Notes: generated from the sequence alone by a model not told the origin. A stretch of 64,000 nucleotides of DNA from Patescibacteria group bacterium (GCA_041662745.1 JBAZRV010000002.1:149785-213784); one strand, 5' to 3'; positions 10,587 to 15,726 are shown, numbered from the stretch's first letter. Translations and numbers: made by a program.

Positions 10587-11273
10587 ATGAAAAAGAAGAG
10601 TGAGTTCTTGAGTGCCCTGGGTGTTATGTGGGAGATTTGGAAATCGCTGACGGACGAAATTTTGTCTTTAGGCGGCGATGACGAGGCGATTTGCCTTATT
10701 AAGGCGAATAATGATCTGCGAAGGCAAATGGCCGAATTGGTAATGGCTAAAGCGCGTGACATCAAAGACGCCGCCAAGCAAATCGTCTCGCCGTATCTGA
10801 CGTCTGTCCATGACCTCGTCATTGACTTCAGTCAGGATCTCGGGCAGATGATTGCCGCCGGCAAGTATGACTGGACCAACTCCGACATTACCGCCGAGCA
10901 TTTTCCTCTTAATGGAGCGGGTAAGCGGAAGGTCCGAGTCGAGTTGCTTCACTTCAATCAGTATTTCAAAAATGGCGATGAAGTGATTGCCAAACTGAAA
11001 GAAGTCAATAAGTGGCTGGCCCAGCAAGGAGCGAACTATCGCTATCGTTTCTCTCGCATTGAAGAGTTTTTGGCTTTGGGCGTGGTCCAACCCGGTCTGC
11101 AACGGCAATTTCCCATTGCCGCTCTGGGCTCAATTTGGCACCGTGCCGGCCTCCGCGACTTCGCTTACCTCTACGGGTTTGGTGCGGAGCGCGACCTGCG
11201 CCTGCGCTGTCTTGAGTTTGACTTCGGCGGCCCTTGGCGGTTCGCTGTTGTCCGCGAGCATGCCTGCCGGTAG
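10587..11273 (+). CDS. DGR target (variable) protein 1. The C-terminal ~41 codons form variable repeat VR1. The C-terminus ends …WRFAVVREHACR, reminiscent of C-type-lectin-fold DGR targets.
   Basis: Its C-terminal 123 bp match the template repeat, with substitutions only at TR adenines. It is paralogous to the downstream gene over the C-terminal ~130 aa and differs at the N-terminus. Confidence 0.8.
   Translation: MKKKSEFLSALGVMWEIWKSLTDEILSLGGDDEAICLIKANNDLRRQMAELVMAKARDIKDAAKQIVSPYLTSVHDLVIDFSQDLGQMIAAGKYDWTNSDITAEHFPLNGAGKRKVRVELLHFNQYFKNGDEVIAKLKEVNKWLAQQGANYRYRFSRIEEFLALGVVQPGLQRQFPIAALGSIWHRAGLRDFAYLYGFGAERDLRLRCLEFDFGGPWRFAVVREHACR
11133..11255 (+). repeat. DGR variable repeat VR1
   Basis: Aligned by eye to TR (12216-12339). 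About 22 mismatches, all at positions where TR has A (e.g. TR AAC codons correspond to VR CTC, TTT, GGC and so on). Three further non-A mismatches lie only in the last ~12 bp. Confidence 0.85.
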
Positions 11274-11284
11274 GCAGGCATGTT
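11257..11284 (+). other. IMH-like GC-rich segment and hairpin (CATGCCTGCC-GGTA-GGCAGGCATG) downstream of VR1. Probable DGR target-recognition/cruciform element.
   Basis: A perfect 10-bp stem with a 4-nt loop immediately 3' of VR1. The same ~60 bp (GTTGTCCGCGAGCATGCCTGCCGGTAGGCAGGCATGTTACCTTGATTCCTTGAACCTTGAC) follows VR2. It is absent after TR. Confidence 0.75.
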
Positions 11285-11333: not shown

Positions 11334-11945
11334 ATGAGAACTGTAAGTAAAACCGGAAACAAAAAAGTCAGAACTGGAACTATCTCCGCCATCACTGGCG
11401 CGATAATCTGCCAAGGCGGAAAAGCCAAGGACTTGACTGCGATTGTCAGAAATGATGAATTGCTCAAACAATTGGCCACGACCATTATCGAACTGTCCAA
11501 AAAGATCATTCAAGTCATTGTTGACTGCACCATGTCGCTCGGCGATATGATCGACGCCGGCAAGTATGACTGGGTGAACTCGAACATCAACGCCAACAAC
11601 TTCCCGATCAGCAGGAAGGGTAAGAAGGTGGTCAGCATTGAACTCTGGCATCCCAACAGGTATTTTAATAACGGCGATGAAGTGATTGCCGAGCTGAAAA
11701 AAACTAAACCCGGCTATCGTTTTACTCAGATTGAAGAACTCCTGGCCTTAGGCGCGGTCCGACCCGATCTGCAACGGCAATTTCCCATTGCCGCTCTGGG
11801 CTCAATTTGGCACCCTGCCGGCGACCGCGACTTCGCTTTCCTCGACAGGCATGATGCGGAGCGCAACCTGTTCCTGGACTATCTTGAGCGTGACTTCAGC
11901 GACCGTTGGCGCTTTGCGGTTGTCCGCGAGCATGCCTGCCGGTAG
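11334..11945 (+). CDS. DGR target (variable) protein 2 (paralog of target 1). The C-terminal portion is VR2.
   Basis: The conserved segment GDMIDAGKYDW…WRFAVVREHACR is shared with target 1. Its C-terminal 122 bp match TR with A-specific differences only. Confidence 0.8.
   Translation: MRTVSKTGNKKVRTGTISAITGAIICQGGKAKDLTAIVRNDELLKQLATTIIELSKKIIQVIVDCTMSLGDMIDAGKYDWVNSNINANNFPISRKGKKVVSIELWHPNRYFNNGDEVIAELKKTKPGYRFTQIEELLALGAVRPDLQRQFPIAALGSIWHPAGDRDFAFLDRHDAERNLFLDYLERDFSDRWRFAVVREHACR
11805..11926 (+). repeat. DGR variable repeat VR2
   Basis: It differs from TR at about 17 positions, all TR adenines. The 3' end (TTGGCGCTTTGCGGTTGTCCGC) is identical to TR. Confidence 0.85.
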
Positions 11946-11956
11946 GCAGGCATGTT
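11929..11956 (+). other. IMH-like segment and hairpin downstream of VR2 (second copy)
   Basis: Identical to the 11257-11284 element. Confidence 0.75.
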
Positions 11957-12030: not shown

Positions 12031-12215
12031 TCTAATTTTTTACTATAATAGAGCCAAGGGTTAATACTCCCGCGGCCACGGTTTCGGGATACCCGCAAAA
12101 TAAACAAGATTGCTCGGCGTCTGATGTTGGCGGGTTTAAAGACCCCGAATAAAATACAGCCGGAAGATACGGCCTGGCTGTTCAACCGGCAGTGGCTACA
12201 GATGGCGTCAGACGA

Positions 12216-12339
12216 ATTTTGGCACCATGCCGGCAACCGCAACTTCGCTTACCTCAACAGGAATGATGCGAAGCGCAACCTGAACCTGAACTATCTTGAG
12301 AATGACTTCAACGACAATTGGCGCTTTGCGGTTGTCCGC
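12216..12339 (+). repeat. DGR template repeat (TR)
   Basis: Adenine-rich (Asn-codon-rich if translated: …AGNRNFAYLNRNDAKRNLNLNYLENDFNDNWRFAVV). It matches VR1 and VR2 except at A positions. It is followed by divergent sequence (TATCAATTTTG) instead of the IMH plus hairpin. A -10-like TATAAT sits at 12044-12049 upstream. Confidence 0.85.
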
Positions 12340-12772
12340 TATCAATTTTGTTTTCCGTCCTCGCTGTTGGCGGGGATGTTTTTTCCAAACCGATTTTCCA
12401 CGCATAGGCCAACCGTCCGATTTCCTCAATTTTAAGCGCCAAATCGCGGAATTTATTATCATTAAATAGCTTCATTTCCCAGCACAGCCGCAAATAAAAT
12501 TTCAGCAGATCGATTTTTTTTATTGATTTTATTGCCGGTTTTAATTTTTTGTCTTTCGGCAGATATTGGGCGGTGGCCAGTATTTCCAATAGTTCCAGAA
12601 ATATCTGATCCAGGCGGATGCCCAAGGTAAAGCGAGATGTTTTGGGAAAATTTTTTAACCAATCATGCCAAAGTTTGTAGGCAGCGATGGTTTTGCCCAG
12701 AACCAGTAAATTTCCCGTCGGGGGGGGGGATTTAAAGGATGAATTATGAGAAATAAGATCAGATTGAGTCAT
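12308..12772 (-). CDS. Avd-like accessory variability determinant (four-helix-bundle, 23S rRNA-IVS protein family)
   Basis: AAYKLWHDWLKNFPKTSRFTLGIRLDQIFLELLEILATAQ…LALKIEEIGRLAYAWKIGLE resembles the DGR Avd/IVS four-helix-bundle family. It is encoded on the opposite strand to RT. Its 3' end overlaps TR by ~30 bp and its 5' end overlaps the RT start by 27 bp. Confidence 0.6.
   Translation of the reverse strand: MTQSDLISHNSSFKSPPPTGNLLVLGKTIAAYKLWHDWLKNFPKTSRFTLGIRLDQIFLELLEILATAQYLPKDKKLKPAIKSIKKIDLLKFYLRLCWEMKLFNDNKFRDLALKIEEIGRLAYAWKIGLEKTSPPTARTENKIDSGQPQSANCR
12720..12729. repeat. Homopolymeric G10 (C10 on the minus strand) tract
   Basis: CGGGGGGGGGGA at 12719-12730. It encodes PPP in the avd N-terminus and lies 17-26 bp upstream of the RT start codon, adjacent to its RBS AAAGGA. 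Confidence 0.8.
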
Positions 12773-13804
12773 AGTTTTGACGAGATTATTTGTCTTGATA
12801 ATTTATTGGCGGCCTGGCGGGAATTCGTCCGTGGCAAAAGAGACAAGAAAGACGTGCAAGAATTCCAGTGGCAACTGATGGATAATCTTACAGTGCTTCA
12901 TTGGAATTTGGCAAGCGGCGATTATTGCCATGGCGGCTATCAGGCCTTTAAGATTTGTGATCCCAAATCGCGGCAAATCCATAAGGCGTCGGTTCGGGAC
13001 AGATTAGTCCATCATGCGATTTATCGGATTTTGTATCCGTTCTTTGATCGGACTTTCATCGCCGATTCTTATTCCTGCCGGCTGGGCAAGGGCACGCATA
13101 GGGCCTTGGCTCGGTTCAGTGAATTCGCTTACTCCGCCAGTCGGAACAATACCCGCACTTGCTGGGTTTTGAAGGGCGATATCAGGAAGTTTTTTGCCAA
13201 CATTAATCATGGGATATTGAAAGAGATTTTGGCCGAGTATATTCTAGATAAAAAGATTTTGGGGTTATTGGATGAAGTGATTGACAGCTTTCACTGTGTT
13301 AATGATAACCTGGATTCCTGCTTTCGCAGGAATGACAAGGGGAAGGATGAGGATGTCAGTGGTAGTAGAGGTCTGCCATTAGGCAATCTGACTTCGCAAC
13401 TTTTAGTTAATATTTACATGAATAGATTCGATCAATTTGTTAAGCATAAATTACAAGTCAAGTATTATATCCGCTATGCTGATGATTTCGTGATAATATC
13501 TAATGACAAAGGAGATCTAATTCGATTATTGGAGTTGATTAGCAATTATTTGAAACAAGAACTGAAATTGGAGCTTCATGATGATAAAATTTCCATTCGC
13601 ACTCTTAGTTCAAGCATTGATTTCTTGGGCTGGATTAATTTTCCCCGTCATCGTGTTTTACGGACAAAAACTAAAAGGAGGATGTTTAGGAGATTGCGGG
13701 ATAATTTTAGGTCAGAAGCGGTTAATTCGTATATCGGCCTGCTAAGTCATGGCAATGCTTATGGATTGCAAAAAAAGATTGCTAAATTAGCTGATTTTTG
13801 TTAG
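12746..13804 (+). CDS. DGR reverse transcriptase
   Basis: N-terminal FDEIICLDNLLAAWREFVRGKR. SVRDRLVHHAIYRIL. A catalytic IRYADDFVII (YADD) motif. RGLPLGNLTSQLLVNIYMN. 352 aa, typical of DGR RTs. Located adjacent to TR and avd. Confidence 0.9.
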   Translation: MRNKIRLSHSFDEIICLDNLLAAWREFVRGKRDKKDVQEFQWQLMDNLTVLHWNLASGDYCHGGYQAFKICDPKSRQIHKASVRDRLVHHAIYRILYPFFDRTFIADSYSCRLGKGTHRALARFSEFAYSASRNNTRTCWVLKGDIRKFFANINHGILKEILAEYILDKKILGLLDEVIDSFHCVNDNLDSCFRRNDKGKDEDVSGSRGLPLGNLTSQLLVNIYMNRFDQFVKHKLQVKYYIRYADDFVIISNDKGDLIRLLELISNYLKQELKLELHDDKISIRTLSSSIDFLGWINFPRHRVLRTKTKRRMFRRLRDNFRSEAVNSYIGLLSHGNAYGLQKKIAKLADFC

Positions 13805-13834: not shown

Positions 13835-14572
13835 ATGTCTTTTTTGGATAAAATTCTAAAATCCTCCGGCAATACCTTATACTATCCCGGCTGTCTGACC
13901 AAATACGTAGCCAAGGATATTTTTGATAATTACAAAAAACTGCTGGAAATGTGCGGCGAGGATTTTATCATTTTGCCGGACAAGGAAGTTTGTTGCGGTT
14001 CGCCGGCCATTAATGCCGGCTTTAAGGCTGAGGCCAAATCTTTAGTCGGGAAAAATCTAGAATTATTCAAACAGTATAATATCAAAAAAATCATTACCGG
14101 CTGTCCGGCCTGCTATCGCGTGTTCAGCCATGAATATCCCAAAATTCTATCAGATTCTTGGGGTATTGAGGTGGAACACATGACCACCTATCTGCTGGAA
14201 AAGTTAAAGTCCGGCAAACTTAAATTGCCAGAAGTTAAAATCAAAGCCGCCTATCACGATCCCTGCCATTTGGGCCGGCATAGCCGGATTTATGAGGAAC
14301 CGCGAGAGTTGCTCAGGGCCATAGGCGTAGACTTGCAAGAAATGGCGTTGAACCGCGAATATGCTTTCTGTTGCGGCGCGGGCGGGGGGGTGCAATCCAA
14401 TCATAAGGAGTTGGCGGAAAAGATCGCCACCGAGAGGGTGAGCCAAGCCGTGGCTACGACCGCCGAATACCTGGTAACGCCTTGTCCCATGTGCGCTTAT
14501 AATTTGCGCAATGGTACGGGCGATAAGATTAAAGTCGTGGAATTTTCGGAAGCGCTATTGGGTAAAATATAA
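13835..14572 (+). CDS. Cysteine-rich (CCG-domain) Fe-S oxidoreductase subunit, LutA/GlcF-C-terminal/HdrB-like
   Basis: Two CCG-type cysteine clusters (YYPGC…CCGSPAINAGF…TGCPACY and PCH…FCCGAGGG…PCPMC). Confidence 0.65.
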   Translation: MSFLDKILKSSGNTLYYPGCLTKYVAKDIFDNYKKLLEMCGEDFIILPDKEVCCGSPAINAGFKAEAKSLVGKNLELFKQYNIKKIITGCPACYRVFSHEYPKILSDSWGIEVEHMTTYLLEKLKSGKLKLPEVKIKAAYHDPCHLGRHSRIYEEPRELLRAIGVDLQEMALNREYAFCCGAGGGVQSNHKELAEKIATERVSQAVATTAEYLVTPCPMCAYNLRNGTGDKIKVVEFSEALLGKI

Positions 14573-14574
14573 TT

Positions 14575-15726
14575 ATGAATCGTGATTTTGTTTACAATTA
14601 TCTTAGCAAGCGAGTTGCCGCCTTAAACCGCGAAGATCAGGAAAAGCTGCGCGATGAGATTTTTGAATTGAAAAAAAAGGCGGCAGCCAGGTTACCCGAG
14701 TTGGTGGAAAAGGCTAAAAATAAATTGGAGCAAGCCGGCGCCAAAGTTTATGTAGTCAAAGATAATGCCGCCGCCACGGAGCTGATTAAAGAATTAGCCG
14801 GTTCCAGTTTGGCGGTTAAAAGCAAATCCAACACCTTGGATAAATTGGGATTAAAAGGAATTTTAGGGGATAAATTGACTGAAACGGATTTGGGCGCCTA
14901 TATCGTCAGCCAAATCGGCGGCGACTCGGATCACCCGGTTTTGCCGGCCATTGATTTGTCAGCCGAAGAAATCGTTGCCAAATTCAAAGAACGGGGAATT
15001 GATCTGCCGGCCAAGCCCAAGGAATTGGTGGATAAATTAAAAAAAATCATTAAGGAAAAGATTTTATCCGCTGAAGTCGGATTGACCGGCGCTAACGCCG
15101 TTACCGCCGACGGGCAAATCATGCTGCTGGAGAACGAAGGCAATATTTCATTGGTCACTCGTTTACCCGGGTTGCATATTGCCGTCGCCAAGGTGGAAAA
15201 AGTCGTTGCTTCTTACGAGGATGCGATTAAAATCGCCAAGGCCGCCGCCGTTTGGGGGACCGGCCAGAGTTGGACGTCTTACGTGTCTTTTATCGGCGGA
15301 CCGTCGCAAACCGCAGATATTGAGAATGAGTTGGTTACTGGAGTGCAGGGAGCGCAGAAGTTAATCCTGATTTTAATTGAAGGACAATCCTATCAAAAAA
15401 TTGGCACGGAGTTGGAGAGTATGCTATACTGTATACATTGCGGAGCTTGTTATAATCTTTGCCCGTCCTGGAATCTGACCTTGACCATGCCTAAAGTCAG
15501 CAGTGATCAGACCAATTTTACTTGCACTCTGTGTCAGAATTGCACCCTTAATTGCCCGGCCAGGATAGATTGGCAGAATATTACCAGGATTTATCGTGAG
15601 AAATTTACCGCCGAAGGCAAGATTAGCGCAGTTAATGCCAAAATGCTTAAGAATTTAAGGCAATATGGCAACCCTTTCGGCGAAGTTTCAGAGGGCGTCG
15701 CGCCGGATGAATTATTTTGCTGTTAA
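14575..15726 (+). CDS. LUD-domain protein with a C-terminal 4Fe-4S ferredoxin-type domain (LutB-like)
   Basis: CIHCGACYNLCP and CTLCQNCTLNCP ferredoxin motifs, with an N-terminal LUD/DUF162-like region. Adjacent to the LutA-like gene. Confidence 0.6.
   Translation: MNRDFVYNYLSKRVAALNREDQEKLRDEIFELKKKAAARLPELVEKAKNKLEQAGAKVYVVKDNAAATELIKELAGSSLAVKSKSNTLDKLGLKGILGDKLTETDLGAYIVSQIGGDSDHPVLPAIDLSAEEIVAKFKERGIDLPAKPKELVDKLKKIIKEKILSAEVGLTGANAVTADGQIMLLENEGNISLVTRLPGLHIAVAKVEKVVASYEDAIKIAKAAAVWGTGQSWTSYVSFIGGPSQTADIENELVTGVQGAQKLILILIEGQSYQKIGTELESMLYCIHCGACYNLCPSWNLTLTMPKVSSDQTNFTCTLCQNCTLNCPARIDWQNITRIYREKFTAEGKISAVNAKMLKNLRQYGNPFGEVSEGVAPDELFCC

Follow-up and report, generated by a model that had tools for sequence, protein, structure and literature searches.

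A poly-G tract at the 5′ end of avd in a CPR DGR and its relatives: a candidate slippage-driven on/off switch

DGRs are most abundant in CPR bacteria, and unrestrained mutagenic homing should be costly. To our knowledge, the regulation of DGRs is largely unknown, and no general off-switch has been described. The layout TR-(avd)-RT, called B3, has been reported for 90% of the CPR DGR set (Wu et al., 2018; PMC5758913). The need for the accessory protein Avd is known only from the Bordetella phage system (summarised in PMC5758913). The DGR surveys consulted, PMC5758913 included, mention no homopolymer, repeat, leader ORF, missing avd start or promoter, and our full-text search found no literature that links DGRs with a homopolymer, phase variation, a repeat or frameshifting (Paul et al., 2017, lay outside its scope).

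Three kinds of described systems are close to the one considered here. The first consists of poly-G/C tracts located just after the start codon of phase-variable genes in Neisseria, Haemophilus and Campylobacter, examples being hmbR/hpuAB and the polyG genes of C. jejuni (PMC3786947, PMC3401435, PMC11868660); for C. jejuni, 9 is given as the mode of polyG tract length (PMC3401435). The second consists of repeats in promoter spacers: the poly-G of porA and the poly-C of opc in N. meningitidis, the (TA)n between the divergent promoters of hifA/hifB in H. influenzae, and the poly-A of nspA (PMC6389960). The third comprises transcriptional slippage and +1 frameshifting at homopolymers, as in IS-element transposases, Thermus dnaX and endosymbiont poly-A rescue, together with productive reiterative initiation (PMC12709180).

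The window analysed here, a stretch of 64,000 nucleotides (64 kb) from a Patescibacteria group bacterium, contains a genuine DGR of architecture B3, TR-(avd)-RT, with two VRs, a TR, and divergent avd and RT (Table 1). A 127-nt repeat family is present in three copies, the third of which is the TR because it has adenines where the other two copies vary. VR1 differs from it at three non-A positions, the remaining variable columns being TR adenines. The two VR-bearing target genes are paralogous, and the two VR copies themselves are diverged. As the B3 layout has it, avd is on the opposite strand between TR and RT, and the arrangement matches Figure 5 of PMC5758913. The RT has 141 confirmed relatives in genomes, nearly all of them labelled CPR/Patescibacteria MAGs, and avd is a neighbour in each one having available upstream DNA. 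Directly downstream of the RT (13835-15726, plus strand) lie genes with CCG (PF02754) and LUD (PF02589) domains, which are lactate-utilisation-like and unrelated to the DGR and indicate a chromosomal rather than a phage context.

Table 1. Coordinates of the DGR features and of the avd-RT junction, counted from the first nucleotide of the window
Feature	Position	Strand	Basis or remark
Variable repeat 1 (VR1)	11134..11260	+	3′ end of target gene 10587-11273
Variable repeat 2 (VR2)	11806..11932	+	3′ end of target gene 11334-11945
Template repeat (TR)	12218..12344	+	Differences from VRs at TR adenines: mostly (VR1), only (VR2)
avd ORF, 154 aa, 'four helix bundle protein'	12308..12772	-	ORF call, Pfam, database record
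Terminator-like hairpin (10 pairs) and T-run	12356..12388	+	Consensus scan only; 12 nt past TR end
bAvd four-helix-bundle domain, residues 34-126	12395..12673	-	Pfam PF22296, E=2.7e-11
avd leader	12730..12772	-	ATG 12772 and about 14 codons (MTQSDLISHNSSFKS) reading into the tract
SD-like AAAGGA	12734..12739	+	6 nt upstream of RT ATG; AAAGGAGG in sister lineage L083
DGR reverse transcriptase (RT), 352 aa	12746..13804	+	RVT_1 E=2.9e-27; divergent from avd

Some further features accompany the repeats. A 24-nt palindrome, CATGCCTGCCGGTAGGCAGGCATG, is found at the 3′ end of each VR (11259-11282 and 11931-11954), where it spans the target-gene stop codon; this is the expected site of the DGR target-site hairpin/cruciform. 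The TR lies within a 103-aa ORF (12124-12435, plus strand) that is rich in Asn codons (AAC/AAT) and looks like a truncated third copy of the target-gene C-terminus (…FAYLNRNDAKRNLNLNYLENDFNDNWRFAVVRY). The terminator-like hairpin and T-run directly after the TR suggest that the TR RNA, ending there, and the RT mRNA may be separate transcripts. A putative 'spacer' RNA downstream of the TR would be antisense to the avd 3′ end. The avd ORF, whose product is recorded as 'four helix bundle protein [Patescibacteria group bacterium]', extends 37 nt into the TR 3′ end on the opposite strand (12308-12344). Because its homologues end about 11-13 residues sooner, this tail is probably not conserved protein.

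The initial annotation drew attention to a homopolymer of ten G's in the avd N-terminus and placed it at 12720-12729, 17-26 nt upstream of the RT ATG, with PPP encoded on the minus strand. The window sequence confirms each of these statements. On the plus strand the tract stands in the context CCGTC-GGGGGGGGGG-ATTTAAAGGATGAATTATGAG, and 12715-12748 reads CCGTC, G10, ATTTAAAGGATGAATT, ATG, the RT ATG being at 12746. The minus strand gives TCC CCC CCC CCG, that is, Ser15-Pro16-Pro17-Pro18 of the avd ORF. In the 64 kb, this G10/C10 homopolymer, our candidate slippage tract, is unmatched: all other G runs are shorter than 7 apart from a single G7 (at 14384), and C runs reach 6 at most. G runs of at least 10 are expected 0.03 (iid) to 0.10 (first-order Markov) times per window. 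Occupying codons 15-18 of avd, the tract is a simple repeat (at least 7) of slippable length in the 5′ coding region, as is characteristic of contingency genes.

Homopolymers are error-prone in sequencing, and the initial annotation had allowed for a sequencing or assembly artefact. For the tract itself this is unlikely, as it is present in more than 100 independent assemblies. The same G10 recurs when the sequence is assembled independently (L081, L082), and it is also present in two diverged sister lineages (L083/L084, L085/L086), so that an artefact specific to one contig is unlikely as well. Where two assemblies differ by one base, a homopolymer error may be the cause. We also considered, and dropped, a structured RNA motif: RNA folding around the tract was no better than that of shuffled sequence on either strand (z = -0.75, +0.27), and the region around the tract had no Rfam match.

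On the avd strand, the tract comes between a leader and the protein body. The predicted Avd N-terminus is MTQSDLISHNSSFKSPPPTGN..., and its first nine codons are antisense to the first nine RT codons. The alignable Avd core begins at Leu22 (codon 12709-12707), as found when it was searched against all loci with tblastn. Before codon 50, the avd frame has no ATG, GTG or TTG other than ATG 12772. When the tract is altered in silico, G9 yields a 38-aa and G11 a 35-aa peptide, in agreement with the earlier claim that a change of +1 or -1 would frameshift avd; G8 and G12 likewise yield 35-38 aa. As no other canonical start is available before codon 50, G9 or G11 would abolish Avd. With G8, G9, G11 and G12 all truncating and G10 in frame, the switch state of the window is ON. 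Two observations from the window complicate this picture. CTG near-cognate codons follow the tract at avd codons 23 and 25, and starts at these might bypass it, counter to the switch reading. In addition, a promoter-like site, overlapping the RT start, was marked on the avd strand by a consensus scan; its -35 hexamer coincides with the leader ATG, which would place ATG 12772 outside the mRNA.

The tract is not confined to the window. With the RT as query, 80 loci were gathered from species-representative genomes and 80 from metagenomes, with an RT identity of 50-70%. In every locus with enough upstream DNA avd is divergent from the RT, and most loci have a G run in the short space between the two. 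A G run of at least 8 is present in the avd-RT junction in 120 of 152 loci; outside the junction only nine G/C runs of at least 8 occur in about 720 kb of fetched flanks. Among the 120 non-redundant loci, 97 have a homologous G6-G14 tract (at least 8 G's in 90, G6-7 in 7) and 12 have another simple repeat instead: (GA)5-14 in ten, (GT)13 in one and a heptamer repeated five times in one. The remaining 11 are without a repeat, several of them showing decayed runs (e.g., GGGGTGGG). Tract lengths run from 7 to 14 and cluster at 9-11, with 9:10:11 = 25:35:15. The occurrence of different repeat units at the same site implies that repetitiveness is conserved and not a sequence motif.

Could the prolines account for the tract? 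PPP as a purely protein-level need was rejected, since CCC makes up only about 25% of Pro codons in the window, and about as much in the RT genes of the relatives; the only other PPP in the window is encoded by CCT CCA CCA. Being over-represented, conserved in homologues and beyond what the protein needs, the tract is, to judge from these comparisons, under selection, and the alignments indicate a phenomenon more general than a single locus, a family feature of the CPR DGR relatives. The same numbers bear on the view that the tract has no switching function, being either a proline linker in an N-terminal Avd extension or a neutral by-product, with the length differences as noise. A CCC usage of about 25% cannot yield C9-C11 in about 100 loci, and a neutral run would decay over the divergence spanned by these RTs, whereas this one is kept while G/C runs are nearly absent elsewhere. 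We return to this view below, with the comparison of close relatives.

A few loci have unusual arrangements at or near the junction. In L014 (2943-2968) the (GT)13 that replaces the G run is read as His-Thr repeats in the avd leader, and in L066 the G run is replaced by five copies of GATGGTT; in both loci the leader is in frame with Avd. At the start of the metagenome contig L161 (1-75), upstream of the RT and at the expected tract site, there are three poly-C stretches (19-24 nt) with single A's between them, probably a sequencing or assembly artefact at the contig end. A second G9/G10 run occurs about 1.8-1.9 kb upstream of the RT in L028 (1165-1200) and L015 (1043-1052). This second run might indicate where a target gene ends; in L028 a GC-rich hairpin (CCTGCCCGC ATGG CGGGCAGG) lies immediately before it.

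Located between two divergent genes, the tract could in principle serve either. From the tract to the first alignable Avd codon the median distance is 9 nt (IQR 7-11, sd 4.3). To the RT start it is 14 nt, with an sd of 30 and a range from -17 (overlap) to 173 nt upstream, so that the position relative to the RT is not fixed. In eight loci with expanded spacers, the tract remains beside avd. These distances indicate that the tract belongs to avd and not to the RT. The initial annotation had proposed that a change in the tract would also alter spacing in the RT 5′ region. We find no support for this: given that the tract lies upstream of the SD-like AAAGGA, its length cannot change the spacing between SD and ATG, and its distance from the RT varies among relatives over the range just given. 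In the window, the RT has both an SD and an ATG of its own downstream of the tract and so does not depend on the frame. On the opposite strand, the bases of AAAGGA encode the leader residues Phe-Lys. We rejected the idea that the poly-G stands in for a Shine-Dalgarno sequence of the RT, both because AAAGGA follows the tract and because the tract can be more than 100 nt away.

The distances also weigh on a second explanation, in which the tract is an element of transcription or of the 5′-UTR: a spacer or initial-transcribed sequence of the back-to-back avd and RT promoters, or a site of reiterative initiation. Its length would then tune promoter strength, and the frame relations would be coincidental. 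Tract lengths within the narrow range of 9-11 are consistent with a constraint on spacing. In about 20 loci TAnnnT directly follows the G run and the RT ATG comes exactly 7 nt on, which is the geometry of promoters for leaderless mRNA, and the window has TAAATT (12707-12712) 7 nt before the first G, besides the avd-strand promoter-like site already mentioned. However, the tract tracks the Avd core and is 52-173 nt away from the RT start in some loci, and its flanking bases are conserved as the peptide FK-PPP, expanded spacers included. Inspection revealed no convincing -35 hexamer at a consistent, fixed spacing, the window has no -35/-10 pair around the tract, and its RT has an SD and is not leaderless. 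It should be noted that consensus promoter scans are weak evidence either way, as CPR promoters are uncharacterised. On balance, we regard a promoter or 5′-UTR element as unlikely.

The best indication that the flanks of the tract are coding is the leader. An avd-strand ATG with an open frame to the tract is present in 99 of 100 loci. This ATG is usually the antisense of a conserved RT His codon (CAT, residue 9 in the window), so its presence alone proves little. The leader ends in the conserved peptide ...N-S-S-x-F-K-(S/T)-P-P-P, which recurs in five loci (L006, L008, L089, L104, L165) where the leader is wholly within a spacer of 114-120 nt and does not overlap the RT. The 'TTAAA' seen on the plus strand after the G run corresponds to the leader codons for Phe-Lys. 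Only three loci have an ATG at 9 nt or less from the Avd core; TTG or GTG is found near the core in about 40%, and these may simply be Leu or Val codons. These comparisons lead us to infer, with good support, that avd normally starts at the leader ATG and that the tract is part of the coding sequence. Gene callers pick differing avd starts around the tract. Public gene calls begin the RT at an internal TTG, which gives 332 instead of 352 aa and apparently avoids the 27-nt head-to-head overlap with avd (window 12746-12805; L081). An exact-protein look-up did not find the exact 352-aa product on record. The shortened RT and the inconsistent avd starts are a warning for annotation pipelines.

Codon choice on the RT side of the overlap is also skewed. 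In related loci, the 37 RT Leu codons between the start and the conserved His are TTG (33) or CTG (4). TTA and CTA are never used there (0/37, P = 2e-7), and CTT and CTC are absent too; the four together supply 64% of the Leu codons in the body of the RT gene. The bias is suggestive, and no more than that, of stop-codon avoidance imposed by leader translation over RT codons 1-8. Its cause is ambiguous because of the missing CTT and CTC and because RT Ile-Gln-Leu is ATT CAA TTG in most relatives, which creates a CAATTG palindrome (the window has AGATTG; 12761-12772). Antisense leader coding, a binding site and an alternative start are all candidates.

If the leader ATG starts avd, the tract determines whether the start is in frame. 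Leader and Avd core share a frame in only 26-30% of loci; the tract is one base too long in 45-50% and one too short in 20-24% (offsets 0, +1 and -1 in 26, 45 and 24 of 95 loci). The nearest in-frame tract length peaks at 9. About 35% of loci have no canonical in-frame avd start, with avd, RT, TR and VR intact there. The in-frame fraction is no lower among loci with TTG, GTG or ATG near the Avd core than among those without. A conserved start that is mostly out of frame, with a hypermutable run at the junction, looks like a phase-variable gene. The same pattern also looks like programmed recoding, or like chance if the frame is irrelevant. Since an in-frame fraction of about 30% is the expectation for a random frame, these data do not show that the frame matters.

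In programmed recoding, the leader would always be translated and Avd would be made from any DNA frame, the tract setting a low and perhaps regulated yield. The route could be slippage of RNA polymerase on the C/G run or a tRNA-Pro frameshift on CCC-C aided by poly-proline stalling. All three frame relations exist, and the commonest would need a +1 shift, the direction favoured for tRNA-Pro frameshifting at CCC-C. The loci that have no canonical in-frame start yet are otherwise intact speak for recoding too, as does a slippery homopolymer (C7-C14) at the junction in most loci, runs of at least 9 being in the length range of known transcriptional slippage. However, a dedicated recoding site normally has one fixed frame relation among homologues, and here the offset is not fixed: 26-30% of loci need no shift and 20-24% need the opposite one. 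Moreover, the (GA)n, (GT)n and heptamer repeats of 12 loci are not slippery for ribosomes or RNA polymerase; such non-homopolymer repeats at the same site fit slippage of DNA instead. Recoding would also leave aside the changes in length that exist at the DNA level between identical strains. We hold it to be rather unlikely.

These changes were found by clustering the loci at 92% identity or more and then aligning pairs. In four pairs the length of the tract is the sole difference: G14 against G9 (L025 vs L139/L140; 3977 nt), G10 against G9 (L097 vs L100; 3234 nt), G10 against G11 (L012 vs L108; 3984 nt) and G10 against G11 (L024 vs L138; 3972 nt), with 0 mismatches in each alignment. In the first three the avd frame flips, being out in the first-named member and in in the second; in the fourth it is out in both. 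None of the thirteen A/T runs of 7-8 nt that lie in these stretches varies. Among more distant pairs, L146 is in and L142 out of frame, L077 in and L049 out, and L099 in and L106 out. About ten other clusters show no difference in tract length, one of them, with seven members, having G9 throughout. The initial annotation had suggested, among its checks, comparing the tract length in related genomes. The comparison goes both ways: the length does vary among relatives and flips the avd frame, but the window's own lineage shows no variation, with G10 in all 7 contigs of 3 close lineages. In the sister lineages L083/L084 and L085/L086, whose Avd is 88% identical, G10 is in frame despite many nearby substitutions, and in the next relative, L001, the frame is kept by G9 plus one extra base elsewhere. 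The pattern in the window's sub-clade speaks for selection on the in-frame state. An exact-flank DNA scan for length variants of the locus found none in a metagenome collection that is without the lineage (best RT match 70%), and an exact-protein look-up of the RT, in its 352- and 332-aa forms, found no contigs beyond L081/L167.

The constancy of an in-frame G10 in the window and its close lineages is what one would expect if the tract had no switching function, and so is a family-wide in-frame fraction equal to chance. Against this, the difference between G14 and G9, in sequences with no other difference over 3977 nt, is more than a one-base error, and the thirteen A/T runs nearby never differ. 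Together with the codon usage and the persistence of the run discussed above, this leaves the absence of a function quite improbable in our estimate.

The possibility that the repeat also affects the RT deserves a separate comment. Some relatives, a minority, lack the usual RT ATG, and their RT frame crosses the repeat from a start further upstream. In each of three poly-G pairs, RT and avd are open together in one member (L100, L146, L077) and closed together in the other (L007, L142, L049). A wider proposal is that throughout this clade of CPR DGRs a hypermutable repeat in the shared avd/RT 5′ region switches the retroelement stochastically and heritably, through both genes in some members (L100/L007, L146/L142, L077/L049), with most copies OFF in natural populations. 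A localized hypermutation system would then itself be under the control of another, simpler hypermutation device. We offer this tentatively, as somewhat short of an even chance. In five (GA)n loci (L020, L044, L047, L059, L070), the RT-open and avd-open frames are different states of the repeat: in this sub-family, the RT is open through the repeat from an upstream TTG and the avd leader is one base out of frame. This discordance does not fit a simple common ON/OFF switch, and we therefore claim no general two-gene switch.

We arrive at the following proposal, which we judge about as probable as its opposite: the tract is a slippage-driven ON/OFF contingency switch on avd, conserved in a large CPR DGR clade. 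The G10/C10 would be a selected, slippage-prone tract between the start-codon leader (ATG 12772) and the four-helix-bundle body of Avd. Gain or loss of a G by replication slippage would put the start codon out of frame and no Avd would be made. Mutagenic homing would then stop, because the RT needs Avd in the Bordetella model, and a second slip would restore it. Two parts of this proposal we infer, namely that the length differences arose by slippage in vivo and not in sequencing and, by analogy, that loss of Avd would silence the DGR. If the proposal is true, the activity of DGRs in CPR bacteria would be bet-hedged, most cells keeping a fixed target protein while a minority diversifies. A switch would also explain the many avd genes of the clade that seem to be without a start codon in annotations. 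Tract length modulo 3 would be a sequence read-out that predicts actively diversifying populations, making the question testable with existing metagenomic reads.

In comparison with known systems, the resemblance to slippage and frameshifting elements lies in a run of at least 9 between an upstream start and an out-of-frame body. Those elements keep one fixed offset and use A/T runs, whereas here there are three offsets and, in some loci, di- or heptanucleotide repeats. Like the repeats of porA, opc and hif, the tract is a homopolymer in a very short space between divergent genes, it has a narrow length range, and its length would affect both genes. Unlike them, it lies inside a translated, conserved leader and stays with avd in loci with a longer spacer, and no flanking -35/-10 pair has been established. 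With SSR contingency loci the tract shares a run of about 9-11 G/C in the 5′ coding region, a modal length close to the 9 of C. jejuni, lengths that, in four pairs of relatives but not in the window's own lineage, differ between near-identical strains, a start put out of frame by a +1/-1 indel, and different repeat units at the same homologous site. It differs from them in that the candidate target is the accessory protein of an RT mutator and not a surface or restriction-modification gene, in that the hosts are uncultured CPR bacteria in which switching is predicted, and in that the tract is also in the 5′ region of a divergent, partly overlapping RT. Finally, among DGRs, the element is unlike the Bordetella prototype, in which avd, TR and brt all point the same way and for which no tract of this kind has been described, and like the B3 elements (PMC5758913) in having two target genes with C-terminal VRs, a TR, an avd on the opposite strand and the RT.
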